This document shows, one piece after another, positions 49,976 to 62,149 of a DNA stretch of 64,000 bases. A model generated the notes under the pieces. It did not search any database. It saw nothing but the letters and a program-made list of their open reading frames with translations, and was not told the origin of the DNA. The DNA lies in the NCBI GenBank assembly GCA_033852135.1, contig JAWSVB010000010.1, forward strand, positions 152,716 through 216,715. Reading direction: 5' to 3'. The translations under genes and the position numbers were made by a program. Every line of letters starts with the position of its first letter. Positions within the stretch are counted from its first letter, which is position 1. Origin of the DNA: Gammaproteobacteria bacterium. GTDB taxonomy: Bacteria > Pseudomonadota > Gammaproteobacteria > QZLD01.

Positions 49976-50698
49976 ATGTTAATGGAAGATTACATGAAAG
50001 AGTTTTTAGATATTGTTATTCAATTTCCAACCGTCATGTTCACAGTTCTACTTGGTGTTATCGTCCTGTATTGGATGTTAGCCGTATTTGGTGTGTTTGA
50101 TCTGGATGTATTGGATTTTGACTTTGATTTGGATCTCGATGCCGACGTAGACTTAGATCTGGATGCTGATGTAGGTGATGCTGGTGATACGCATACAAGT
50201 CACACTGGCATAGGTGGCTTTATGGCTGCTTTGGGATTAGTCGGGGTTCCAGTTACCGTAATTGTTAGCTTGATAGTGATGTGGTGTTGGTTACTTACGC
50301 TGCTGTATGGAGCATATTTACAACCAATGTTACCTGATTGGGGTTTGACCTGGGCTATATCTGCGGTAGTTGTATTTGTAAGTTTTATTATAAGCCTGTT
50401 CCTTACACAGTTTTCTATTAAACCTCTGCAGCCTCTTTTTGAGCATGAAGGAAAAGCTTTGGGCAATAAGGATATTGTTGGGCAACTATGCGAAGTTATT
50501 ACCGGAAGGGTAGATGATAAATTTGGCCAGGCTCGATACAACAAAGATGGCGCGGGTTTAATAATTGAAGTTAGAAATATGAGTGGAGCTGTTCTTAAAA
50601 AAGGGAATACTGCTCTTATAGTTGGTTATAGTGCGGAGAAGATGACCTACAGGGTAGAGCCGTATGAAAACAATTCGTATGAAATTGAAGTTAAGTAA
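49976..50698 (+). CDS. NfeD-family membrane protein with acidic DL-repeat insert
   Basis: TM helices plus a C-terminal OB-fold beta domain typical of NfeD partners of SPFH proteins. It has the insert DLDVLDFDFDLDLDADVDLDLDADVGDAGD. It lies immediately upstream of the flotillin gene. Confidence 0.7.
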   Translation: MLMEDYMKEFLDIVIQFPTVMFTVLLGVIVLYWMLAVFGVFDLDVLDFDFDLDLDADVDLDLDADVGDAGDTHTSHTGIGGFMAALGLVGVPVTVIVSLIVMWCWLLTLLYGAYLQPMLPDWGLTWAISAVVVFVSFIISLFLTQFSIKPLQPLFEHEGKALGNKDIVGQLCEVITGRVDDKFGQARYNKDGAGLIIEVRNMSGAVLKKGNTALIVGYSAEKMTYRVEPYENNSYEIEVK

Positions 50699-50730
50699 AG
50701 GTTGGTTGTTTCAATAACTAATAAGCGGTC

Positions 50731-50764
50731 ATACCGGCGAAGGCCGGTATCCAGTGTTTTATTT
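50731..50764 (+). terminator. hairpin between nfeD and flotillin gene (possible attenuator/partial terminator)
   Basis: ataccggc-gaag-gccggtat, then gttttatttc. Confidence 0.4.
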
Positions 50765-50830
50765 CTGGCTGCTGGATCGTCAGTATTTTTTATATAAATT
50801 TATGATTAAGTAAAAAAATAAGGAGTTAAA

Positions 50831-53032
50831 ATGGAAGGTTTGTTATCACCTGCAACTATCGGTATAGCTGTAATTGTTGCAATTGTATTTTTGATCCTGA
50901 TGGGGATATTGATAATGTTTGCCAAGTTCTTCTGTAAGGTTGAGCAGGGTAAAGCGATGATCGTAAATACCATGAAGGCAAGACCAATTGTCACCTTCAC
51001 CGGAAGACTGGTTCTACCTGTAGTTCATAAAGTTGAGGTGATGGATATCTCTCTAAAGAGAATCGTTATTGACCGTTCCGGTTCCGATGGTCTTATCTGT
51101 CGTGACAATATCCGTGCCGATATCTCAGTTAACTTTTTCGTCCGTGTTAACCCAACAGAGGAAGATGTACTGCGTGTAGCAAGTAATATCGGTTGTGAAA
51201 GAGCATCGGACCAAAAAGTACTCGATAATCTTTGGTCAGCTAAATTTGCAGAGGCTCTAAAAACAGTTGGTAAGCAGATGGATTTTGAGGATCTGTATCA
51301 AGAGCGTGAAAATTTCCGTGATGCAATTAAATCAGTTATTGGTGATGACCTAAATGGCTACAGACTAGAAGATGTTGCGATCGATTACTTAGAACAAACT
51401 CCAGTTGATAACCTTGATAGCCGCAATATTCTTGATGCGCAAGGTATCCGTAAAATTACCGAGCTAACTGCTGTTCAACATGTTGCTGCCAACTTGGCGC
51501 AAAATGATGAGAAGAAGCTGATAACAAAGCAAAACGTTGAAGCTCAAGAAGCTATTCTAGCTCTAGAGAGACAAAAAGCAGATGCAGAAGCAAAACAAAA
51601 ACGTGAGATAGAAACTACAGTTGCACGGGAAGAAGCATCAACAGCGCAGGTGTGTGAAGAGGAGCGCTTAAAATCTGTTCAGGCTAGGATTAAATCCGAC
51701 CAACAGATAGCCGTGGAAGAGGAAAATAAAACTCGTGAAGTTGAGGTTGCTGAGCAAGAGAGACTAAGAGTTCTTGCCATTAAGGAAGAAGAGGTTACTA
51801 GAGCTCGTGAGCTGGAAGTTGTAGCGCGTGAGAAAGAGGTTGCGATTCAGCAGATCGATAAAGAGAAAGCGGTTGAGCAGCAAAAAAGAGAGATTGCTGA
51901 TGTTATTCGTGAGCGTGTATCGGTTGAGCGTACAGTAGCAACAGAAGAAGAGAAGATAAAAGAGGTCAGAGAGGTAAGTGCTGCAGAAAGAAGTAAGCAG
52001 GTTCAGGTGATGCAGGCACAAGCTATCGCTGAAGAGCAAATGGTTAAAGAGGTCAAAGCAGCAGAAGCAGCAGAAAAAGCAGCTAAATTTGAAGCGCAAA
52101 AAGAGATCGCACTGGCTGAGGCAGAGCTTGAGTCTAGTTCTAAACTGGCAGAATCGAAGAAGGTTCTGGCAGAAGGTACACAGGCTGAACAAGCTGCTAG
52201 CGGTTTAGCAGATGCCAGGGTGAAAGAAGCTCAAGCTATTGCACTGGAAAAATATGGTAGATCAGAGGCTGATGTTGAATACCAAAAACTTTCTGCTCGT
52301 GCCAAAGGTAACGAAGAAGAGGGTATGGCCAAGGTCAGGGTTCAAGAGTCTGAAGCAAAAGTTATTAAAGAAAAAGGCGCAGCAGAAGCGTTTGCAACTC
52401 AGCAATCACTTGAAGCAGAAGCTAGCGGTATTAAGGCTCAAGGCCTTGCTGCTGTTGACGTTAAGCGTGCAGAAGCAGATGCAGTTGAACTGCAAGGTAA
52501 AGCAGATGCAGTTGCAATCAGAGAGAAATATCAAGCTGAAGCCAAAGGTCTGACTGAGAAATTCCAGGCACTTAATGGACTGGATGAAAACGGTCGCAAG
52601 CATGAAGAGTTCAGAATCGAACTTGAGAAAAACAAAGAGATTCAACTTGAAGGGATTGAAGCACAGAAAGTGCTTGGTGAAGCTCAATCTAAGATTCTGG
52701 CTGATGCCTTCCATGATGCAAATATCAACATCGTTGGTGGAGATGGTGCATTCTTCGATCGCTTTGTTAAGGCAGTATCTTTGGGTAAATCGATTGATGG
52801 CGTGGTAAACCACAGTGAGACAATCCAAAATGTTGCTGGTGATTATGTTAATGGCGATAAGGATCTGCTGGGTGATATTAAAGAGGTTCTAACTAACTCT
52901 AAGATGTCATCAGAGGATATAAAAAATCTGACCATGTCTGGAGCACTGGCTAAGTTTATGAAAGGTGGGGCGGATAAAGATCAGATCAACGCTCTGTTAG
53001 CCAAGGCAAAAGAGATGGGATTGGGTGAATAA
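50831..53032 (+). CDS. flotillin-like SPFH/Band-7 protein (YqiK/FloT-like) with very long EA-rich coiled coil
   Basis: 733 aa. An N-terminal TM helix is followed by an SPFH domain, then about 400 aa of E/A/K/Q-rich coiled coil and a C-terminal globular part. Confidence 0.85.
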   Translation: MEGLLSPATIGIAVIVAIVFLILMGILIMFAKFFCKVEQGKAMIVNTMKARPIVTFTGRLVLPVVHKVEVMDISLKRIVIDRSGSDGLICRDNIRADISVNFFVRVNPTEEDVLRVASNIGCERASDQKVLDNLWSAKFAEALKTVGKQMDFEDLYQERENFRDAIKSVIGDDLNGYRLEDVAIDYLEQTPVDNLDSRNILDAQGIRKITELTAVQHVAANLAQNDEKKLITKQNVEAQEAILALERQKADAEAKQKREIETTVAREEASTAQVCEEERLKSVQARIKSDQQIAVEEENKTREVEVAEQERLRVLAIKEEEVTRARELEVVAREKEVAIQQIDKEKAVEQQKREIADVIRERVSVERTVATEEEKIKEVREVSAAERSKQVQVMQAQAIAEEQMVKEVKAAEAAEKAAKFEAQKEIALAEAELESSSKLAESKKVLAEGTQAEQAASGLADARVKEAQAIALEKYGRSEADVEYQKLSARAKGNEEEGMAKVRVQESEAKVIKEKGAAEAFATQQSLEAEASGIKAQGLAAVDVKRAEADAVELQGKADAVAIREKYQAEAKGLTEKFQALNGLDENGRKHEEFRIELEKNKEIQLEGIEAQKVLGEAQSKILADAFHDANINIVGGDGAFFDRFVKAVSLGKSIDGVVNHSETIQNVAGDYVNGDKDLLGDIKEVLTNSKMSSEDIKNLTMSGALAKFMKGGADKDQINALLAKAKEMGLGE

Positions 53033-53056
53033 ACAACCTGTCTGATTGTAGTATGT

Positions 53057-53162
53057 GTAGGGTGGGCGCTGTTTGTAGTCGAAGCTCCCACCAATTTAAG
53101 TTTTACCAAATTACATGGTGGGCAGTGCCCACCCTACCTATTGTTTAATTTATGTAGGGTGA
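53057..53162. repeat. cluster of REP-like palindromes (GTAGGGTGGGC ... GCCCACCCTAC) after flotillin gene
   Basis: gtagggtgggcgc at 53057 pairs with gcccaccctac at 53128-53138. There is an internal perfect hairpin ggtgggca-g-tgcccacc and a further partial copy gtagggtg at 53153. Confidence 0.6.
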
Positions 53163-53211
53163 ATTGCTGATAATGATTTGGTATTAAGGATATTCAAGCA
53201 GGAGTCCAACT

Positions 53212-56200
53212 GTGAGTTCAGCAGTTTCCAATACAGACCAGCAAGAGCAAACCTTAGAATCAGGTGGTGTCTATAATGTTATTCGTAAGCGGCTTGAGGA
53301 GCATGGTTCCAGTCTTAATGATAGAGTAAGTGCTTTAAATACTCAAAGGGAGGATGCCTTTGGTAGCACAAATATCACTGTACTTGGATCGTCTCGTGTC
53401 AGAACTGAAAATAACTGTATTGCCCGTGATATTGTTTGTGTTGGTGATCTATTCCTATTTGGTTATAACGTTTATATTGGCTTAAAAACCGAGACCAAGG
53501 TAAGTGATGTTTTTAGCCTTTATCGGCAGCGTAATCAAGAGGATGAACTAGAGCTAGATCATGTACCGCTTGAGGGAACATTTCTTGATGATTCAGATTT
53601 TGTAACCGATTTTAAAGAGCTATACCAATACTATAAAGATTCAAAACTGGTTCAGTTAAGGCGAGGCATTAAAGGCAAATTGCTGGCAATATTCCAGACC
53701 GGTAGCGCAATCACAGATCAGAAGGTTTTTCGCTGGCAAGTATCAGCAGATGGTGAAGTTACATATATAGATAATCGTGGTGAGAACGATAATATAGTTC
53801 CTGAATCTCACGACTTTGAGTGGACCTTTACCACCAGAGATGACCACGTCCGTGGCAAACATTCCCATATAAACATCTTGGATGAGGTTTTTGTTGAAAC
53901 CATTGGTGGTGATCTAACTATTAAGGTGGAAGATAATACCGATGATGGCCAGGGTATATATTCAGAACTAGTAGATGATCCAAATCAGTCACTGCAAGAT
54001 GCTCAGATAGCTTACGCAAAACTTGGAACCCTTATACTGCTAAAAATCAGGCCGTATAAGGAGAAGGATTGGCGTTACCTTATCTACAATAGTCGTGCGC
54101 AAAAAGTAAAAAGAATTGACCAACTTGGTTTGTCAGCAATTCAGTTACCAGAGGATCATGGTGTTATCTTCCCTGGTGGATATTACCTGCAAAATGGTGA
54201 GTTTAAGATTTACGACACCAATGTCGATGATATGTATTTTCTGCGCTCTATCATCTCGCCAAATGGTGAAGATGTTATGTATGTCTTCTACCATTATGAG
54301 GAGGGGCGCTTTGTTCTCCTCTCGTATAATTTAATTCGTAAAGAGTTAGAAAAACCTGTTGTCTGTAATGGTTATGGCCTTTTGGAAAACGGTCATATGG
54401 CAGTATTCCGTGAGCAGAGTCAGGATCCTACCAGAATACATAATCTGCAGTTGTGGCAAACTCCATTCGTGACAGAGGAGTTTGTTGATAAAAATGCCCA
54501 GGAAAACGATTCTGTATTTACCAAAATAGGTAACCCAGATCTGGTTCGTGCAATATCCGATATGTTTAGCGTTTGCAGATCTATAGATAACCAAGAGCCA
54601 ACCTTGGCAAGCTATGAAGATCTAATCGGTTCAATCACCAGAATTATTGATGCATATCATTGGTTATCCAATAGTGAGATTGGCAACTTTGTTGAAGAAC
54701 TAAATCAGATAAGCGCAACTGCTGAACAAGTATTAGATGAGTTCGAAAAAGTTGTAGCTATCAAGAAGCAGGCAACAGAAGCTGTAACCAAGGCTAAAAC
54801 TGAACAAGTAAAACTTATTAAAGAGGTAAAACTTGGAGATTGGTCGACCATAGAGGGTTATATCAATGCCCTAGCTAGATTAAGAACCCAGCGTGGCAAT
54901 CTGATAACTATAAAAGATCTACGCTATGTTGATCTTGAGTCGGTAAAAAGTTTAGAAAATGATGTAATTGAAGCCTTTGATCATGTAAGTAGAAACACCG
55001 TTGATTTTCTTCTTAAAGATGATGCATTCACTCCATATATTGATTCTATAGAGCAGCAGAGTGAACAGATAAACGAGATTAAAACCAGAGTTGACCTAAA
55101 GCCGGTAATTGAAAAACTTGAAGAGATTGGGGAAGGTCTCTCATTATTGACCGAGGTTATTAATCAGCTGGAGATTGAAGATACAACCTCCAGAACTCAA
55201 ATCTTGGAAGGGATATCATCGCTATTTGGAAATCTTAATAAGACCAAGGCAGCAGCAGACATACGCTGGAAAGAGATAGGTAAAAAAGAGGATGTGGCGG
55301 AATTTGGCGCCCAGTTCTTGCTGCTATCTCAAAGCGTATCTAGCGCTATCTCCATGTCCGATACACCAGAAAAGGCAGATGAGAACTTATCCCGCTTATT
55401 GCTGCAGCTAGAAGACCTTGAAGGGCGCTTTGGTGAGCATGAACAATTTGTAGCCGATCTCACCGAAAAAAGGGAGGAGATCTACTCAGCCTTTGAGAGT
55501 AAGAAACAATCATTGGTTGAGCAAAAGCAAAGTAGAGTGCAATCACTTGCTAACGCAGCCGATAGAATTATTGCTGGCATAACTCGTCGGGCAAAAACCA
55601 TAAAAAGTATTGATGAGCTTAACGGCTATTTTGCATCCGACCAGATGGCTCTTAAAGTCAGAACTATAGTTGAACAATTGCGTGAGCTGGATGATAACGT
55701 CAAAGCCGATGATATTGAGAGCAAAATAAAAACTGCACTCGATAGATCGATTCGTTCGCTGCGCGATAAGATAGATATCTTTGCTGACGGTGGAGACACC
55801 ATAAAACTTGGTACCCATAGCTTTAGTGTAAATACGCAAGAACTTGATCTAACCCTGCTATCGCGTAATGATAAACTGGCATTGCATCTTACAGGTACAG
55901 ATTACTACCAAGAGATTGAAGATGAGGCATTAAATGCTGCTCAGGATTATTGGTCACAAACCATAGTATCTGAAAATGATGATGTATATCGTGGTGAATA
56001 TCTAGCATCCTCAATCTATTTTGATGCCGAACATGCAACCAATGGCACCACTCTGGCAGACCTACGTAAGTTAATTACGCAAGAGGATGCCCTAGATCAG
56101 TTTGTAAAAGACTACGCCGCCTCAAGATATGATGAAGGTTACGAGCGGGGTGTGCATGATCATGATGCTGCCAGAATCTTAGAGAAATTACTCTCTTTAA

Positions 56201-58482
56201 AAGAAACGACGGGTCTATTAAGTTTTAGCACAGTTGCCAGATCATTAGCCCTACTATTTTGGGTTTACAGCAAAGGCAATATAACTCGAGAACACTGGCA
56301 GCTACAATGCAGTGGTTTTGGAAAGATCGCAGATTTCTTTGGTGATAGTCCAGATATCGTTGCACTAAAGTCAGAGTTGTCTCAGGCAATTGAAAAGTTC
56401 TTACAGCATGAAAATATTAACTACAGTGAATCGGATCTAAAGATTGCAGGATCCTATCTTGTAGAAGAGCTAAAGCAAGATAACTTAGCTTTTGTGATAA
56501 GTGGTAAGGCAGATGACTTAGCCAATCGATTGCTAACTTATTTAGATCGTAAGAACCAATTGCAAAGCTTCGAAGCCAGCATAAAAGATCTGGATGGAGC
56601 TGTATCTAATCAGGTGCGCTTGGTTGTAGGTTGGCTCAATGGCTTCTTAGGAACCCTTGATGAGAATAAAGCGCAAACACTGGCAAAGTACACCCTAGAG
56701 GCGGCAGTGTTTCTGTTAATTCGCGATAAGGCAGAAAGGCGAATAAGTGATGCAGTTACCGTAGCTCAGATAGATGGGTTATTGGGGCAGCACAATATAA
56801 TTGAAGATCGCAAACTTACAGTTGACCTACCGGAGTTTATTCAACGCCTAGCGGCATATCATAATACCGTTGTTCCGGGATTCAGACAGCTACGCGAGCT
56901 AAAAACCAATATCACCAAAGCAGAGCGAAATTCACTGCGAGTAGATGAGTTTATCGCGCAAGAGCTAACCTCATTTGTGCGTAATAAACTTATTAACGAT
57001 GTTTACCTCCCCCTTGTCGGCACCAACCTTGCCAAACAGATGGGAACCGTAGGTGAAAATAAACGTACCGATCTTATGGGAACACTGCTACTTATATCGC
57101 CACCTGGATATGGTAAGACCACCCTGATGGAATATATTGCCAATCGAGTTGGGTTGGTGTTTATGAAGATAAACTGCCCAACCATTGGTCACTCAGTAAC
57201 CTCTATTGATCCTGAGGAGGCGACCAGTGCTGCGGCAAAACAGGAGTTAAATAAGCTCAATCTAGCCCTGGAGATGGGGAGCAACGTGATGCTCTATCTT
57301 GATGATATTCAGCATACCAATCCCGAGTTCTTGCAGAAGTTTATCTCCCTCTGTGATGCGCAAAGAAAGATAGACGGTGTATGGCGAGGCAATGCTAAAA
57401 CCTACGATCTGCGTGGTAAAAAGTTCTGTGTCATCATGGCTGGAAACCCATATACAGAATCGGGCGAAGCATTCAAAATACCAGATATGCTTTCTAATCG
57501 TGCTGATGTATATAATCTAGGTGACGTATTTAGCGGTAATGAAGATATCTTCAACCTAAGTTACATTGAAAATGCGATGACATCTAATAGTGTTCTCGCT
57601 CCGTTAGCATCACGCGAGATGGATGATTTTTATGCATTTATCAAGATGGCGCAGGGCGGCCAAATAGCCACAAACGCGCTGAAACATAATTACTCTGGTG
57701 CTGAAGTAAATGAGATTGTAGCGGTGTTAAAGCACCTGTTTACAATTCAGAGCGTGATATTAAAAGTAAATTCGCAATACATCGCATCTGCATCCCAGGA
57801 TGATGCTTATAGAACCGAGCCACCATTCAAACTGCAAGGCTCATATAGAAATATGTGCCGCATGGCAGAAAAAGTAGTGGCAATAATGAATCAGGAAGAG
57901 ATAGATCAACTGATTCTGGATCATTATATTGGTGAAGCACAAACCCTGACCACCGGAGCTGAAGAGAATCTACTCAAGCTGGCGGAGTTACGCGGCTTAA
58001 TGTCTCCAGAGCAAGAGCAGCGATGGGGTGAGATCAAAAAGACCTATAGCAAAAACCAAAGTATGGGTGGAGATGAAGACCCGGTAACTAAAGTTGCAGG
58101 TCAGTTAAACCTACTTTCAGGTCAAGTTGATGGAATCAAGTCTGCAATACTCACAGCGTCTGATGCTAATAACTCACCGCAGATCGAACTATTGGAAAAG
58201 TTTGATAACACCATGGAGCTATTGGCCAAAATGCAGCTACAGGTTCAAGTGACAAATCAACCAGTGCCAGGTCTGGAACCACTACTTGGAACTATGGCCT
58301 CAACTATCGAAGGGTCATTGCTGCCTGTTGTAAAAGCGATGGAGCATAAGTTAAGACTCGACCATGATATCTGGGATACCCTAAATGGTGTGGTGAAAGA
58401 GCTAAAAGGGATAGATAAAGAAAGATTCGGTAAGTTAGAGATGAATAAAGAGGTGCGTGGAGTCTTTGACCCGAATGAGTAA
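53212..58482 (+). CDS. giant (1756 aa) coiled-coil protein with C-terminal MoxR/AAA_5-like ATPase module; function unknown
   Basis: One uninterrupted ORF. Walker A LLLISPPGYGKTT is at nt 57101-57124 (aa ~1297). Walker B VMLYLDDIQH is at nt ~57286-57315. A sensor-like stretch CVIMAGNPYTESGEAFKIPDMLSNRADVYNLG resembles MoxR/RavA/dynein-type AAA_5. The N-terminal ~1250 aa have no motif I recognise, with predicted coiled coils around aa 480-560 and 700-820. Confidence 0.8.
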   Translation: MSSAVSNTDQQEQTLESGGVYNVIRKRLEEHGSSLNDRVSALNTQREDAFGSTNITVLGSSRVRTENNCIARDIVCVGDLFLFGYNVYIGLKTETKVSDVFSLYRQRNQEDELELDHVPLEGTFLDDSDFVTDFKELYQYYKDSKLVQLRRGIKGKLLAIFQTGSAITDQKVFRWQVSADGEVTYIDNRGENDNIVPESHDFEWTFTTRDDHVRGKHSHINILDEVFVETIGGDLTIKVEDNTDDGQGIYSELVDDPNQSLQDAQIAYAKLGTLILLKIRPYKEKDWRYLIYNSRAQKVKRIDQLGLSAIQLPEDHGVIFPGGYYLQNGEFKIYDTNVDDMYFLRSIISPNGEDVMYVFYHYEEGRFVLLSYNLIRKELEKPVVCNGYGLLENGHMAVFREQSQDPTRIHNLQLWQTPFVTEEFVDKNAQENDSVFTKIGNPDLVRAISDMFSVCRSIDNQEPTLASYEDLIGSITRIIDAYHWLSNSEIGNFVEELNQISATAEQVLDEFEKVVAIKKQATEAVTKAKTEQVKLIKEVKLGDWSTIEGYINALARLRTQRGNLITIKDLRYVDLESVKSLENDVIEAFDHVSRNTVDFLLKDDAFTPYIDSIEQQSEQINEIKTRVDLKPVIEKLEEIGEGLSLLTEVINQLEIEDTTSRTQILEGISSLFGNLNKTKAAADIRWKEIGKKEDVAEFGAQFLLLSQSVSSAISMSDTPEKADENLSRLLLQLEDLEGRFGEHEQFVADLTEKREEIYSAFESKKQSLVEQKQSRVQSLANAADRIIAGITRRAKTIKSIDELNGYFASDQMALKVRTIVEQLRELDDNVKADDIESKIKTALDRSIRSLRDKIDIFADGGDTIKLGTHSFSVNTQELDLTLLSRNDKLALHLTGTDYYQEIEDEALNAAQDYWSQTIVSENDDVYRGEYLASSIYFDAEHATNGTTLADLRKLITQEDALDQFVKDYAASRYDEGYERGVHDHDAARILEKLLSLKETTGLLSFSTVARSLALLFWVYSKGNITREHWQLQCSGFGKIADFFGDSPDIVALKSELSQAIEKFLQHENINYSESDLKIAGSYLVEELKQDNLAFVISGKADDLANRLLTYLDRKNQLQSFEASIKDLDGAVSNQVRLVVGWLNGFLGTLDENKAQTLAKYTLEAAVFLLIRDKAERRISDAVTVAQIDGLLGQHNIIEDRKLTVDLPEFIQRLAAYHNTVVPGFRQLRELKTNITKAERNSLRVDEFIAQELTSFVRNKLINDVYLPLVGTNLAKQMGTVGENKRTDLMGTLLLISPPGYGKTTLMEYIANRVGLVFMKINCPTIGHSVTSIDPEEATSAAAKQELNKLNLALEMGSNVMLYLDDIQHTNPEFLQKFISLCDAQRKIDGVWRGNAKTYDLRGKKFCVIMAGNPYTESGEAFKIPDMLSNRADVYNLGDVFSGNEDIFNLSYIENAMTSNSVLAPLASREMDDFYAFIKMAQGGQIATNALKHNYSGAEVNEIVAVLKHLFTIQSVILKVNSQYIASASQDDAYRTEPPFKLQGSYRNMCRMAEKVVAIMNQEEIDQLILDHYIGEAQTLTTGAEENLLKLAELRGLMSPEQEQRWGEIKKTYSKNQSMGGDEDPVTKVAGQLNLLSGQVDGIKSAILTASDANNSPQIELLEKFDNTMELLAKMQLQVQVTNQPVPGLEPLLGTMASTIEGSLLPVVKAMEHKLRLDHDIWDTLNGVVKELKGIDKERFGKLEMNKEVRGVFDPNE

Positions 58483-58537
58483 CTCTTGGTTTATTTCTAT
58501 TCGTTACTCCGCTCTGCTTAAAAATGTATAAACACAT

Positions 58538-58635
58538 CCTCGTTCCCACGCTCTGCGTAGGAATGCATACTGGATTTAATATAGGGGCAAGGCTCTGAAC
58601 TCTCGTTCCCACGCTCTGCGTGGGAATGCATATGG
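58538..58635. repeat. two direct REP copies (cctcgttcccacgctctgcgtRggaatgcata) upstream of the RAYT gene
   Basis: Copies are at 58538-58574 and 58600-58635. Each contains the palindrome cccacgc-tct-gcgtggg. Confidence 0.8.
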
Positions 58636-58644
58636 GATAAAAAT

Positions 58645-59175
58645 ATGGGACGAAATAGATATAATTTCACAGAGAAAAATTTACCTCACTTTATGACGTT
58701 TACAGTGCTTCATTGGATTCCTATATTTACACGCCAATCGACAGTGGATATTGTTTTTGACTCACTTAGATACCTTATGAATGAAGGTATGAGAGTTCAT
58801 GCTTATGTAGTGCTTGAAAACCACTTACATCTAATATCCCAAAGTGAACAATTAAGTCGGGATGTTTCCCGCTTTAAGTCTTATACAGCTAGAAGATTGA
58901 TTGAATATTTGGAAGAACACAATGTTAGTAGAATATTGGATCAACTCAAGTTTTATAAAAAAGCCCATAAACCTGATAGGGCTTATCAGTTTTGGGAGGA
59001 AGGTGTTCATCCTGAGTGGATACAAAATGAAGAAATGATGCGGCAGAAAATTAACTATATTCACGATAATCCGGTTAAACGCGGGTATGTTGATTTGCCA
59101 GAGAATTGGCGTTATTCAAGTGCTAGAGCTTATAAAGGTCAAGAGAGTTTGCTAGAGGTAGATAGGTTTTGGTAA
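58645..59175 (+). mobile_element. REP-associated tyrosine transposase (RAYT, IS200/IS605-like TnpA_REP)
   Basis: 176 aa. An HxH-type motif (ENHLHLI) and a catalytic Tyr region (RYSSARAY) typical of Y1 HUH transposases. It is flanked by inverted REPs. Confidence 0.8.
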
Positions 59176-59180
59176 GTAAG

Positions 59181-59213
59181 TATGCATTACCACGCAGAGC
59201 GTGGGAACGAGAG
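59181..59213. repeat. inverted REP copy (tatgcattaccacgcagagcgtgggaacgagag) downstream of RAYT
   Basis: Reverse complement of the upstream REP with one mismatch. It completes the REP-RAYT-REP (REPtron) unit. Confidence 0.8.
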
Positions 59214-59698
59214 TGATGTCTCCTGAGCAGGAGCAGCGATGGGGTGAGATCAAAAAGACCTATAGCAAAAACCAAAGTATGGGTGGAGATGAAGATCCGG
59301 TAACTAAAGTTGCAGGTCAGTTAAACCTACTTTCAGGTCAAGTTGATGGAATCAAGTCTGCAATACTCACAGCGTCTGATGCTAATAACTCACCGCAGAT
59401 CGAACTTTTGAAAAAGTTTGATAACACCATGGAGCTATTGGCCAAAATGCAGCTACAGGTCCAGGTGACAAATCAACCAGTGCCAGGTCTGGAACCATTA
59501 TTGGGAACCATGGCCTCAACTATCGAAGGGTCATTACTACCTGTTGTTAAAGCGATGGAGCATAAGTTAAGACTCGACCATGATATCTGGGATACCCTAA
59601 ATGGTGTGGTGAAAGAGCTAAAAGGGATAGATAAAGAAAGATTCGGTAAGTTAGAGATGAATAAAGAGGTGCGTGGAGTCTTTGACCCGAATGAGTAG
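59201..59698 (+). CDS. free-standing second copy of the giant protein's C-terminal 160-aa module (duplicate of 58000-58482); intact ORF
   Basis: The 483-nt stretch 59216-59698 is about 97% identical to 58000-58482. Identity begins exactly at an in-frame ATG and ends exactly at the stop codon. 14 of about 15 substitutions are synonymous (one E to K). The track ORF's extra N-terminal residues MGTRV are read out of the REP. Confidence 0.6.
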   Translation: MGTRVMSPEQEQRWGEIKKTYSKNQSMGGDEDPVTKVAGQLNLLSGQVDGIKSAILTASDANNSPQIELLKKFDNTMELLAKMQLQVQVTNQPVPGLEPLLGTMASTIEGSLLPVVKAMEHKLRLDHDIWDTLNGVVKELKGIDKERFGKLEMNKEVRGVFDPNE

Positions 59699-59829
59699 CA
59701 GAGTAAAAATAGTAATTAGTCTGTTTCTACTTTCAGTATCGATGTTGTCTGCTGCAAATGAAGTAGAGAATAAATTTATCCATGCAGGTCTTTACAAATT
59801 AATGCCTTGGTAAACAATGGTTAAGATTG

Positions 59830-60279
59830 CTAGTGTTGATCTTTGGGTGAATTAGAAATTATCCAGAACCTATCATCAAAATACTTTTCTAAGCATGGTT
59901 TTACATAATTCCAACTTAATCCACCACCCCCACATCCAGGGCGTGGAATAATAACTTTGCTCCAGCCATTTTTATTAACCATTGAAACCAATTCTTGGCA
60001 GGATTTCTCAATTATTTTTAGTTCAGGGTTCTCAAATGAACTGTTTTCTACCGGAAAGCTGATCAATCCATCAATTACTTCATAAACCTGTATTCCACTT
60101 TCCAGAATCAGGGTTCCCAGTTTTTGAGGGAGATCAGGAAAACGGTCTTTAGCTTGTCTAGCACAACCCCTTGGCATTGAGCATTTGCCTTTTTTGCTAA
60201 CAGCACCTGCTGTTGTTATAACAACAGGATGTTTACCAAAGTAATCCCAGATATTTCCCGTTATTTCATTCATTTGCAA
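59830..60279 (-). CDS. stand-alone macro-domain protein (DarG/TARG1-like ADP-ribose binding/hydrolysing fold), putative
   Basis: 149 aa. The N-terminal ITGNIWDY...[30 protein letters not shown] parallels the macro-domain segment GDLF...VNTVNxVGVMGKGIAxxFKxxFP. The C-terminal glycine-rich loop [14 protein letters not shown] parallels the macro-domain diphosphate-binding loop. Assigned from memory of family consensus, not from a search. Confidence 0.45.
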
Positions 60280-60312
60280 TTACCAAAAAAAGTTAAAGAA
60301 GATTTTAGTTTA

Positions 60313-60347
60313 GACCGAAGGTGCGATTGTTGATTGCGATGTTATGG
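60313..60347. repeat. partial copy of islet repeat (gaccgaaggtgcgattgttgattgcgatgttatgg)
   Basis: Matches the 3-prime conserved half of the repeats at 60776-60845 and 61339-61414. Confidence 0.6.
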
Positions 60348-60638
60348 AACACAACTTCTAACAATGAGCGAACATGATAGATGCTTTGTATTAGCAACTG
60401 GGTAACGCCACAATCAAATGAAAATCCAGTTTACAATAAAACTAGAACGAAGGCACGTTGGCCTTAAAAGATAAGGAAAACAAATCAGAGCTTAAGCTTG
60501 CAATCCCTTTTAACCCATCTGATAAAGTGCCTATCAACAACTGGTAATGCTATGAATTGCCCTACTCCAACCCAAGCTGAGCATTGGGATGAGAACTTAA
60601 AAGCACAATTGGTGAAGTTGCCTGAGACAGATATTTTG

Positions 60639-60662
60639 AATTGTTCAGGCGCCTGAACAATT
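60639..60662. promoter_or_regulatory. 24-bp perfect palindrome aattgttcaggcgcctgaacaatt
   Basis: Perfect dyad symmetry inside a 570-bp ORF-free stretch. Confidence 0.4.
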
Positions 60663-60775
60663 GAACTTGAGATTGCAAGATAAGCGATAGGAAAGTAAAG
60701 ATGCTAAGGCAGTAATTTGAACTTGAATCTACGATTTAACCAACTAAAAGAGCTTTAAGATAAATGATGCATAAT

Positions 60776-60845
60776 GCCCGCGATAACCGCTTGCGGTTTG
60801 AAGTCCAGTGCGTGAAATGCACGATGGTTGATTGCATTGTTAGGC
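60776..60845. repeat. islet repeat copy B (~70 nt, multi-hairpin) abutting stop codon of 60849-61316 gene
   Basis: gcccgcgataaccgcttgcggtttgaagtccagtgcgtgaaatgcacgatggttgattgcattgttaggc. It contains the hairpins ccgcttgcgg and cgtgaaatgcacg. Confidence 0.7.
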
Positions 60846-60848
60846 TTA

Positions 60849-61316
60849 TTAAGTAACATAATTTATTTGACCGTTATCGGATATAAAACCAAAACCCGTA
60901 ATTACTCCGCTACTACACCAACCGGGTAAAACATATTTACAGTCCCATTTTATTGGAAAGACATCCAAACGCTCAAGGCCTAAAGCATTATAAAAAGACC
61001 TCAAATACAATTCATCAGGCGCACTCATACCTTCCCAAAAATTAAACTTTTGTTCACCTACGAATATTAATGGTTGGCTATCAGGGAGTTCTTCCTCTGG
61101 GCAAACATATCCACAAAGGGTTTTACCATTAGCTAACTTAAACTCAGCAATAGCAACATACATCGACATAGTTTGAGAAAGTTCTTGTTCAGTCCCACTT
61201 TGAACAGACGCTTCATCTATTGCTCCGTCATCATCTTCAGAGAGGTATATCCACAGTGGATAATCCTTAAGATCACTTTCAGTTAGATCATATACTTGTT
61301 TAACCACCTTTTTCAT
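60849..61316 (-). CDS. hypothetical protein (155 aa), acidic N-terminus, no recognised family
   Basis: ORF only. It is tightly packed between islet repeats A and B. Confidence 0.45.
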   Translation of the reverse strand: MKKVVKQVYDLTESDLKDYPLWIYLSEDDDGAIDEASVQSGTEQELSQTMSMYVAIAEFKLANGKTLCGYVCPEEELPDSQPLIFVGEQKFNFWEGMSAPDELYLRSFYNALGLERLDVFPIKWDCKYVLPGWCSSGVITGFGFISDNGQINYVT

Positions 61317-61338
61317 CGGTATATCCTATAAGCATAAC

Positions 61339-61414
61339 GCCCGCAATAACCGGCGAAAACCACTTGCGGTTTTGAGTCCAGTGCCGAAGGCACGATGGTT
61401 GATGGCGATGTTAG
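61339..61414. repeat. islet repeat copy A (~76 nt) overlapping stop codon of DUF4262-like gene
   Basis: gcccgcaataaccggcgaaaaccacttgcggttttgagtccagtgccgaaggcacgatggttgatggcgatgttag. The hairpins are aaaaccacttgcggtttt and gtgccgaaggcac. Confidence 0.7.
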
Positions 61415-61857
61415 TTTTCATACAGTTGAGGTATAAACCATGTATAGTCTTCTGGTGCACCTGAATCCCAGGGCCATACACCAGATGTGCTTGGATATAT
61501 TAGCTGCAGTACTTTGAAAGAATCGCCTTTATAAAGCCATTTTGCCCAACCAAAATATTCTTGATAGTGCTTTTTTTCAACTTCTTTAAATGTTACTTCA
61601 AATTCATCAAGGAACCCAGAATAGTATTTGTTTGCTTCAAATACTACACCTGATTTTACTCTGTTGTTATATTCATTAATCAGCCAGTGAGCTATTTCAT
61701 GGTTGAGACCGGTGATTATTATTTCTGGTTGGTTTGTATTTTTTTCGATGCCAATAGAATAGGAAAACCTAGGGTATTGGTCTTCTTCCATTATATGAAT
61801 GATATGGCAGCCATATTCTTTTATATCACTTAATGCTCTTTCTTCGTTTTTATCCAT
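61411..61857 (-). CDS. DUF4262-like protein (family often found as immunity-type genes in toxin/defence islands)
   Basis: 148 aa. The segment EYGCHIIHIMEEDQYPRFSYSIGIEKNTNQPEIIITGL matches the conserved DUF4262 core as I recall it (GCHV..V......PFAYTVGL....PELIVFGL). Confidence 0.5.
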   Translation of the reverse strand: MDKNEERALSDIKEYGCHIIHIMEEDQYPRFSYSIGIEKNTNQPEIIITGLNHEIAHWLINEYNNRVKSGVVFEANKYYSGFLDEFEVTFKEVEKKHYQEYFGWAKWLYKGDSFKVLQLIYPSTSGVWPWDSGAPEDYTWFIPQLYEN

Positions 61858-61885
61858 GAGCTACCTTTTGAAAACTAACTTGTAT

Positions 61886-61920
61886 TAGACGTCGACGTTA
61901 TACGTCGAAAACGACGTCTA
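61886..61920. promoter_or_regulatory. nested palindromes with three GACGTC cores upstream of the DUF4262-like gene
   Basis: tagacgtcg...cgacgtcta form 9-bp outer arms. The inner palindrome is cgacgt-tat-acgtcg. Confidence 0.4.
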
Positions 61921-62149
61921 GACCCTAAAATAATTTATTATTGACGATTTTTTATCGACACTCACTGAATTTACCCCTTAAGTACGAGTATTACAATTTA
62001 TGTGTCATATTTCTAGTAACCTAATTATTTTGGTAGGTTATGGGGTAGCTATCTATTTTGATCTTTAATATCTCTTTACCACATATTAAATTAATTATTC
62101 AAAATTTTGCTTACCAGTAAAATCAATTTATAATTCTCCCTCTTAAAAA

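Follow-up and report, generated by a model that had tools for sequence, protein, structure and literature searches.

A REP-RAYT cassette between two copies of the 3' end of a giant ATPase gene in a gammaproteobacterium

Integrative elements, such as phages and islands that occupy tRNA or protein genes between attL and attR, can bring with them a replacement 3' end of the target gene. Insertion with long target duplication was first reported for H. pylori and was extended by Furuta et al. (2010, NAR; PMC2853133), who described inserts between direct repeats of 46-423 bp that are 93-99% identical, the strain with the empty site having one copy. These inserts occurred mostly in naturally competent species, and the definition of the class refers to restriction-modification genes 'with no other mobile elements' (PMC2853133). 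A mobile element at the joint of a duplication ('Dup-IS') was described by Ngan et al. (bioRxiv 10.1101/2024.06.02.596822; PMC11708052). REP-RAYT units (Nunvar et al. 2010, PMC2817692; Bertels et al. 2017, PMC5581495) place the gene between at least two REPs in inverted orientation (PMC2817692), and RAYTs typically occur in one copy per genome (PMC5581495).

In the window (the whole 64-kb stretch of DNA analysed), a REP-RAYT cassette lies between two copies of the end of a giant gene. The features are listed below.

53212-58482, plus strand: giant gene, 1756 aa, with DUF3686, DUF7902 and AAA+ ATPase domains (Pfam)
58000-58482, plus strand: repeat copy A, the last 160 codons and stop (TAA) of the giant gene
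58483-59215, plus strand: inserted cassette, 733 bp, missing in sister strains L082 and L083 by synteny comparison
58500-58536, plus strand: degenerate REP-like copy in the spacer after the copy-A stop, 62% identical to the REP reference copy (family D2)
58539-58575, plus strand: REP 1, hairpin core TTCCCACGC-TCT-GCGTAGGAA
58602-58638, plus strand: REP 2, hairpin core TTCCCACGC-TCT-GCGTGGGAA
58645-59175, plus strand: RAYT gene, 176 aa (NCBIfam NF047646, REP_Tyr_transpos)
59179-59214, minus strand: REP 3, inverted, its outer end abutting copy B with a single G (59215) between
59216-59698, plus strand: repeat copy B, a 160-codon ORF from ATG to TAG, with the ancestral Lys66 and the ancestral downstream context kept
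59691-59813, plus strand: remnant of a peptidase M15 (D-Ala-D-Ala dipeptidase) gene, 40 codons, its ATG overlapping the copy-B stop; matches L082

The giant protein matched DUF3686 (E = 7.9e-196), DUF7902 (3e-26) and AAA (3e-7) in Pfam, and its gene is the final member of a conserved set encoding proteins of 240, 733 and 1756 aa. Orthologues of equal length were present in L082, L083 and L084. At the position of Met1597, where the repeat begins, orthologues carry L, M, Q or I and conservation continues straight across; judged from this alignment, Met1597 is not a conserved domain boundary.

A first-pass annotation, made from the letters of the DNA alone, had described the repeats as about 97% identical and as extending from an in-frame ATG as far as the stop codon; alignment confirmed both points. 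The copies are identical at 468 of 483 positions (96.9%) without gaps. The left edge of similarity is the A of the ATG that encodes Met1597 of the 1756-aa ORF, just before which the bases differ (TTA in copy A, GTG in copy B). On the right, similarity extends one base past the stop codon (TAA-C versus TAG-C), and the flanks beyond are unrelated. Copy B contains neither a frameshift nor a premature stop. GC content was 43.5% in the repeats, 38.6% in the cassette and 38.7% in the whole window. The further suggestion of cassette loss by recombination between the direct repeats makes mechanistic sense, as identical runs reach 149, 110 and 65 nt, but no such derivative was seen.

The RAYT ORF scored 91.2 bits (E = 5.6e-26) against REP_Tyr_transpos, for which the cut-off is 80 bits, and inspection by eye identified a putative HUH motif (HLH) and a candidate catalytic Tyr in YIHDNP. 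More than 3000 homologues were found, the nearest at 73% identity. The ORF is thus a homologue of HUH/Y1 transposases of the RAYT type, and it stands between REPs in inverted orientation: 58599-58632 and 59181-59214 (34 nt; REP 2 side and REP 3) are 97% complementary, and 58539-58571 and 59179-59211 (REP 1 and REP 3) are 94% complementary. The REP sequence conserved in the family ends at ...GGGAACGAG. Dispersal of REPs in many copies was not seen within the material searched, as no copy with up to 3 mismatches occurred in the 64-kb window beyond the three beside the RAYT gene, and none was found in L082, L083, L084 or L086. The junction bases, TAAC|TCTTGG and GAGAGTG|ATG, showed no obvious common target motif. 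The RAYT is the only gene inside the insert. A site-specific integrative element with att repeats was rejected because the insert contained no tyrosine or serine integrase, and single-strand transposition of the IS200/IS605 type, with its short target and no target duplication, was rejected because a 483-bp duplication flanks the unit.

The arrangement was also examined in other assemblies. A 2910-nt contig, L001 (GCA_041156585.1), reads x-A-cassette-B-y, where x and y are the outer flanks; it differs from the window at 2 positions, neither of them in the repeat, and copy B is annotated there as a gene. L091 (GCA_041156845.1) carries REP|B-y at 100% identity, and L085 (GCA_041156785.1) carries A|REP-RAYT, the contig ending in REP 3. 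The structure is probably not an artefact of this assembly.

Empty sites were found in two sister strains, L082 (95.3% identical) and L083 (96.8%), which have a single gene copy and no RAYT; relative to them, the window contains 1216 bp of extra sequence (one repeat copy plus the cassette). In L082, an intact 223-aa peptidase M15 gene starts at the ATGAGTAA overlap with the stop of the single-copy giant gene, and the M15 remnant directly 3' of copy B marks B|y as the native 3' junction of that gene. Together, the single-copy sisters and the M15 overlap, seen both in L082 and after copy B, indicate that the x|A and B|y junctions are ancestral and that only the two cassette junctions are new. 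Immediately beyond the giant gene's stop codon, four different 3' flanks begin: the M15 flank in L082 and after copy B, the cassette flank after copy A and in L085, and two further distinct flanks in L083 and L084. Downstream of the giant gene lies a variable hotspot in which all strains diverge from the stop codon onwards, and this accounts for the right-hand limit of the repeat.

The strains are recombination mosaics. L082 and L083 were identical over 56462-57461 and then 8-12% apart, and L085 was identical to the window over 58333-58838 (506 nt), a tract that crosses the A|REP junction; there were 17 differences upstream of it (58015-58332) and 9 downstream (58839-59152). The A|REP junction is thus also present in a strain about 3% diverged (L085 and L086). 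Among the strains compared, none had the cassette without copy B, and none supplied a donor allele with the copy-A-specific changes.

The locus, a REP-RAYT unit between long repeats of its target, matches the known pattern of insertion with long target duplication. The direct repeats are longer than 30 bp (483 bp, 96.9% identical), L082 and L083 have a single copy at the orthologous site, and L082 shares the copy-B flank. As in the described cases, the insert is between a few hundred and a few thousand bp long and is flanked by long target repeats that are not identical (384/412 and 388/397 in PMC2853133; 468/483 here), in hosts that exchange DNA readily. Unlike those cases, the cargo is not a set of restriction-modification genes lacking a mobility gene but a REP-RAYT unit, itself transposase-derived, with the RAYT as sole gene, and the target is exactly the 3' 160 codons, the giant gene being intact and a second ORF left. 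Dup-IS similarly has a mobile element, newly arrived, between two copies of a chromosomal segment; a short target-site duplication is absent, and recombination between the copies is expected to remove the structure easily. It concerned DDE-type IS and large laboratory duplications with identical copies, whereas the present case has a RAYT cassette as the element and a 483-bp segment whose copies differ by 3%. Elements of the att type also leave the target gene intact and the displaced native 3' end downstream as a similar, mostly silently differing repeat; in contrast, this insert has no integrase, the 'element' is only 1.2 kb and the 483-bp repeat far exceeds a typical att core. With known REP-RAYT units the cassette shares the HUH/Y1 homologue, the inverted REP hairpins and an intergenic site directly after a stop codon; it differs in the 483-bp duplication that brackets it, in having no REP elsewhere in the window and in its patchy presence among the strains of one species. 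As RAYTs are usually described as typically single-copy, a cassette that is present or absent among strains and flanked by a long target duplication bears on their gain and loss.

Ten of the 15 differences between the copies are synonymous third-position changes, three fall in a pair of neighbouring Leu codons (CTA/TTA, CTT/TTG) without altering the amino acid, one is in the stop codon (TAA/TAG), and one is non-synonymous, GAA (Glu) in copy A versus AAA (Lys) in copy B. The initial description of nearly all differences as silent, with a single E/K change, was therefore accurate. The dN/dS comparison that it had proposed was performed by the Nei-Gojobori method and gave pS 0.115, pN 0.005 and dN/dS ~0.04 (Fisher p = 4e-7 for the synonymous excess); the ratio was low, but it does not show selection on copy B. 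The differences are patchy and not clock-like: four fall within 12 nt (P ~0.03), and the last 149 nt before the third base of the stop codon have none (P ~0.006). When polarised against four other alleles, copy A showed 8-11 derived, lineage-specific changes, including the sole amino-acid change, Lys66->Glu, and copy B showed four, all silent or stop-preserving (P roughly 0.01 if they had arisen in neutral sequence after duplication). Seven derived states, including Ile72->Met, are common to both copies and absent from L085, L083 and L082. The argument that silent-only divergence reflects purifying selection on copy B thus fails against the mosaic strains, the clustered differences and the derived changes lying mostly in copy A, because functional alleles, whether strain alleles or recombined patches, give silent-biased differences. 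Low dN/dS between two copies in one genome is not proof that both are functional, especially in recombining populations, since the differences can come in from functional alleles.

We regard it as moderately probable that the locus arose by insertion with long target duplication, the silent A/B difference being allelic and copy B a by-product. The species recombines strongly, and one of its sub-lineages would have acquired the 733-bp REP-REP-RAYT-REP cassette at the 3' end of the giant ATPase gene, with the terminal 483-484 bp of that gene coming to lie on either side of the insert. Copy A would complete the giant gene, and copy B would be the native gene end, duplicated or displaced and most likely left over as a by-product. 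The 3% silent-only difference would represent allelic variation shaped by selection in intact genes, either because the copies came from two strains or through patches recombined in afterwards. The REP|B junction may have formed by an illegitimate join during uptake of another strain's DNA, by integration of a circle carrying the gene end and the cassette, by tandem duplication with the cassette at the joint, or by RAYT cleavage at a REP. Several observations count against this account: a random breakpoint is expected at an in-frame ATG only ~1-2% of the time (an estimate), the copy-B-specific changes are silent or stop-preserving, the copy-B ORF is undamaged and has near-typical ribosome-binding potential, and the cargo, a transposase-like gene, departs from the class as defined. 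The first-pass annotation had offered two readings, a functional paralogue and a segment recombined from a diverged allele; the second fits best with the empty sites, the ancestral outer junctions, the mosaicism and the patchy differences, while the first lost the silent-bias argument on which it mainly rested.

The seven shared derived states, the 149- and 110-nt identical tracts and the A|REP junction in the ~3%-diverged strain (L085 and L086) would also be expected if the duplication were old, from about the time of the strain split, and a functionless copy B had been kept ORF-like by repeated gene conversion (concerted evolution) from copy A and incoming alleles. With the strains compared, however, a recent event between two sister alleles gives the same pattern, the L085 contig ends in REP 3 and so supports the A|REP side only, and unselected direct repeats with 149-nt identical runs, 733 bp apart, should be lost readily; we consider an old duplication unlikely. 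Conversion-like identity tracts in two similar direct copies 733 bp apart would likewise suit a silent cassette that gives the giant gene alternative C-termini by gene conversion, but one cassette with one amino acid different offers no diversity to swap and nothing comparable was present at 80 orthologous loci, making such a role extremely improbable. Nor do we place much weight on a chimera in which the assembler used the 733-bp cassette to join one strain carrying it after the stop to another carrying it within the gene at 58000. Several strains are represented in the source assemblies (GCA_041156845.1 has both the RAYT-less L083 and the REP|B contig L091) and the L085 and L091 contigs break inside REP 3, but these breaks are accounted for by the 34-nt inverted repeat, the x-A-cassette-B-y order is uninterrupted in two separate assemblies (the window's source contig and L001), and the required junctions, x|cassette and cassette|other flank, were absent from all contigs fetched. 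We judge this chimera very unlikely.

A functional, free-standing copy B, with a 160-aa product from the ATG at 59216, is weakly favoured by the intact ORF bounded exactly by ATG and stop and by the four copy-B-specific changes, all silent or stop-preserving; the dN/dS of 0.04 between copies and the gene call in L001 are also in its favour. It would be transcribed by read-through from the giant gene and the RAYT gene, and its product would work in trans on the AAA+ ATPase, as a competitor, an adaptor or a spare C-terminal module, for instance. The expression signals read from the sequence appear neutral: ribosome-binding potential (-4.3 kcal/mol) was about typical among 33 window ORFs checked, but no promoter-like site was found in the interval separating copy B from the RAYT gene, and the REP 3 hairpin overlaps the 25 bases before the ATG. 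Allelic origin or recombination, both demonstrated in the population, would produce the silent bias just as well, Met1597 is not a conserved domain boundary, and the product would differ from the resident C-terminus by one residue, that change having arisen in copy A. A free-standing gene for the C-terminal module, which the first-pass annotation proposed seeking in relatives, was not found: a second copy or RAYT occurred at 0 of 80 orthologous loci, and the ORF was continuous across the Met1597 position in all 80. Four short database matches were checked and rejected as such modules, P0008 and P0143 being contig-edge fragments, P0138 reflecting a scaffold gap and P0010 an AAA->TAA nonsense allele. 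A functional copy B thus seems improbable to us; if the 160-aa ORF were expressed, it would be a very young gene that began as a gene fragment and whose parent and age bounds are known.

Returning to insertion with long target duplication, there is a small chance that the REP-RAYT cassette and the neighbouring 3' end of the giant gene travel together from strain to strain, the gene end acting as a homology arm and the native end being displaced downstream. With this 483-bp arm, integration would be homologous, either one-sided or of the Campbell type, and the target gene would be restored in the process, which would provide a horizontal route for a supposedly domesticated, immobile RAYT with the landing site unharmed. 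The 506-nt identical tract over the A|REP junction, between strains that are otherwise ~3% diverged, is compatible with such spread.

The final 160 codons of the giant gene occur twice in the window, on either side of a 733-bp cassette. A repeat search and pairwise alignment showed that copies A and B are identical at 468 of 483 positions, without gaps. The left edge of the repeat is the A of an in-frame ATG (Met1597 of the giant protein) and the right edge is the stop codon plus one base, whereas the flanking DNA outside both copies is mutually unrelated. The second copy of about 97% identity, running from ATG to stop, that was described in the first-pass annotation was therefore borne out.

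Features of the locus (window coordinates)
53212-58482: giant ORF of 1756 aa with DUF3686, DUF7902 and AAA+ domains
58000-58482: copy A, the final 160 codons and stop of the giant ORF
58483-59215: cassette of REPs and a REP-associated tyrosine transposase (RAYT) gene
59216-59698: copy B, a 160-codon ORF from ATG to TAG

The 15 differences between the copies comprised 13 that are synonymous in effect, one Glu in A that is Lys in B, and one in the stop codon (TAA versus TAG). A formal dN/dS comparison of the copies upheld the silent bias, with a ratio of approximately 0.04 and a synonymous excess of p = 4e-7.

In the interval between the copies, a decayed REP and two others precede a 176-aa gene, and an inverted REP follows it. 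This gene scored 91.2 bits against a curated NCBIfam model for REP-associated tyrosine transposases (cut-off 80), and its position between inverted REPs fits the definition of a RAYT as a gene flanked by inverted REPs (PMC2817692). RAYTs typically occur as one copy per genome (PMC5581495), whereas this cassette is found in some strains of the species and not in others. It is also unusual as a RAYT unit in that no further REP copies were found elsewhere within the 64-kb window. A long flanking duplication was considered as a trait of the RAYT family and rejected, as none of 22 metagenome loci with RAYT homologues was flanked in the manner of the 483-bp case. Some of those genes were flanked by repeats of only about 70-100 nt, which we read as REP-array repeats.

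The 31-nt REP core CTCGTTCCCACGCTCTGCGTRGGAATGCATA (58539-58638 and 59179-59214) had an exact match in more than 120 contigs among the metagenome matches listed (L093-L212), which come from many samples. Core and RAYT were present on one contig in 21 of the loci listed, with those RAYTs 55-75% identical to that of the window, and the REP looks more conserved across lineages than its transposase. REP positions outside CTCG...GCATA showed a weak pyrimidine preference and nothing more.

Three close relatives (L082, L083 and L084) were reached through the 90% cluster of the giant protein and were 95.3%, 96.8% and 86% identical to the window at the nucleotide level, respectively. L082 and L083 each carry one gene copy, with RAYT and REP absent from the locus fetched; L084 also has a single copy, on a contig that ends 44 nt past the stop codon. 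In L082 an intact peptidase M15 gene (223 aa) comes next, its ATG overlapping the stop codon of the giant gene (ATGAGTAA). The same overlap follows copy B in the window, together with the first 40 codons of the M15 gene, the remainder of which is gone through a deletion of about 630 bp. Both outer junctions, into A and out of B, are therefore ancestral. What is new is the join of A to the cassette (58482/58483) and that of the cassette to B (59215/59216), and the extra DNA amounts to 1216 bp, that is, one repeat copy and the cassette.

DNA directly after the stop codon of the gene or its copy
L082 and window copy B: M15 gene
Window copy A and L085 (a further cassette-bearing contig): cassette
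L083: 194-aa gene, reverse strand
L084: spacer containing a hairpin

A variable region begins at the 3' end of the giant gene and extends to truA, which is enough to account for the exact right-hand boundary of the repeat. This stretch is a hotspot that differs from strain to strain. In the window (59699-62149) it holds what remains of the M15 gene, a 147-aa protein whose PADLOC match is DarG-like (macrodomain antitoxin; 5.5e-10), a 155-aa ORF and a DUF4262 protein. In L082 (15272-18066) the intact M15 peptidase is accompanied by two small reverse-strand genes, and L083 (5372-6266) has only the 194-aa gene, which had no Pfam match. Short direct repeats (60777-60811 and 61350-61384, 86%; 60315-60344 and 61384-61413, 87%) link the surroundings of the 155-aa ORF (60849-61316, reverse strand) with the DNA just before the DUF4262 gene, and may represent another small local duplication.

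All or part of the arrangement recurs in other assemblies. A 2910-nt contig (L001, GCA_041156585.1) covers it in full, from 98 nt of the gene before A, through the cassette and B, to 1.1 kb of downstream DNA, with two mismatches to the window, neither within the repeat. Another (L091, GCA_041156845.1) begins within the right-hand REP and is 100% identical to the window through B and the flank that follows, and in L085 (GCA_041156785.1) the REPs and RAYT come after A, at 97.8% identity. The structure is therefore probably not an artefact of one assembly. There is a small formal possibility of a chimeric join via the cassette, because the source assemblies are multi-strain: GCA_041156845.1 holds the RAYT-less haplotype L083 alongside L091. 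A metagenome scan gave no match to the REP-B junction in further strains. Contigs number in the tens of thousands in the public assemblies holding this organism (L083 and L091 in GCA_041156845.1, L085 and L086 in GCA_041156785.1), and two haplotypes of the locus, one with the cassette and one without, occur together in at least one of these. The species itself is absent from the species-representative genome collection, where the best match was a Competibacteraceae MAG at 67% amino-acid identity.

The first-pass annotation had proposed, as one of two readings, that copy B is a functional free-standing C-terminal module, and relatives were searched for such a gene. At all 80 orthologous loci in species-representative genomes the ORF is continuous over the Met1597 position (L in 34, M in 26, Q in 9 and I in 6), and neither a RAYT nor a repeated C-terminus is present at any of them. 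Scanned in full with HMMER, a set of 1.84 billion representative proteins gave 122 matches, many of them short. Several of the many short proteins matched by the 160-aa query begin at the homologous Met. Four short matches were traced and none was a genuine separate gene: P0008 and P0143 begin no more than about 25 nt from the end of a contig, P0138 is preceded by a run of N in its scaffold, and P0010, from a Pseudomonadales MAG, has an in-frame AAA to TAA nonsense codon before its start. Met1597 was also rejected as a domain boundary, as conservation was unbroken across the site in an alignment of C-terminal fragments; the AlphaFold model (mean pLDDT 42.7) was too poor for defining domains. 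Predicted expression signals around B were uninformative. The interval separating the RAYT from B contained no promoter-like site, and the + strand had no terminator-like site downstream of either A or the RAYT. The 25 bases 5' of B's ATG overlap the REP hairpin, and the predicted anti-Shine-Dalgarno pairing of -4.3 kcal/mol is near typical of the 33 window ORFs checked.

Comparison among strains bears on the meaning of the silent divergence. L082 and L083 are identical over 56462-57461 and then 8-12% apart. L085 is identical to the window from 58333 to 58838, spanning the junction between A and the REPs, with 17 differing sites on one side (58015-58332) and nine on the other (58839-59152). 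The population is thus a recombination mosaic. The A/B differences are themselves patchy, with four within 12 nt (P ~0.03) and none in the last 149 nt before the third base of the stop (P ~0.006), where other strains vary. When polarised with L085, L083, L082 and L084, seven derived states were common to A and B, which are therefore sister sequences; 8-11 changes, including Lys to Glu, were specific to A, and four (positions 9, 321, 324 and the stop codon) to B. As a possible sign of a donor tract upstream of copy A, the stretch from about 56460 to 58332 holds window-specific changes at a higher density than the DNA before it, but the outgroups are mosaic there too and the pattern is not decisive.

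The anatomy of A, cassette and B matches insertion with long target duplication, in which an insert lies between direct repeats of 46-423 bp that are 93-99% identical, with one copy in strains without the insert; most reports of it come from naturally competent bacteria and concern restriction-modification genes (PMC2853133). Duplication with a mobile element at the joint is a related pattern (bioRxiv 10.1101/2024.06.02.596822). The most likely account, held with somewhat better than even confidence, is that B was left as a by-product when the cassette inserted, with long target duplication, in a recombining population. A functional paralogue maintained by purifying selection is unlikely. The start of the repeat at an in-frame ATG is a mild anomaly in its favour, with a coincidence of 1-2% estimated for a random breakpoint before allowing for the region having been flagged for that feature. 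Selection on B does not follow from the silent-only divergence, because variation drawn from intact, selected genes looks purified whether or not B is used; this look is expected both from two strain alleles joined by the event and from patches recombined later. The four B-specific silent changes would be improbable, at a chance of about 1%, only on the assumption that they arose as mutations in a neutral B after duplication. The paralogue reading found no support in these tests.

As for the mechanism, the junction between A and the REPs is common to two diverged strains, and homologous exchange across it has happened. The cassette-B junction probably came from one illegitimate joining event, for which four routes are possible, listed without rank: one-sided homologous integration of cassette-strain DNA whose right-hand end was joined illegitimately, Campbell-type integration of a circle comprising the gene end and cassette, a tandem duplication that has the cassette at its joint, or RAYT cleavage at the REP. 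Two small details are left without explanation, a single G at 59215 and the pentamer AGAGT, which the right end of the cassette shares with the beginning of the native downstream flank. Between the window and L085 RAYTs, four of the nine differing sites in 58839-59152 are non-synonymous (V74I, P110S, E129Q, S168G), and the 356 nt upstream, including all left-hand REPs, are identical, a pattern that points either to relaxed constraint on the RAYT or to recombination with a breakpoint inside the gene.

The giant protein and the two genes preceding it gave only weak AAA-type matches in PADLOC, a PDB search with the giant protein gave no structure, and no mention of DUF3686 was found in the papers searched. 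In a Pseudomonadales MAG (L087 7986-7988, also L088) an in-frame TAA replaces a conserved Lys codon about 35 codons past the Met1597 equivalent, so that the gene is called as a 1620-aa protein and a 118-aa 'gene'. This TAA occurs in the NCBI record and in an ENA record with another sample accession, and the allele is either a tolerated truncation or a pseudogene. The giant gene is always preceded by two genes of about 215-240 aa and 650-733 aa, neither of which matched Pfam at E <= 0.01. This three-gene set (window 49976-58482, L084 577-9019, L087 248-7988) is widespread in Gammaproteobacteria and Myxococcota.
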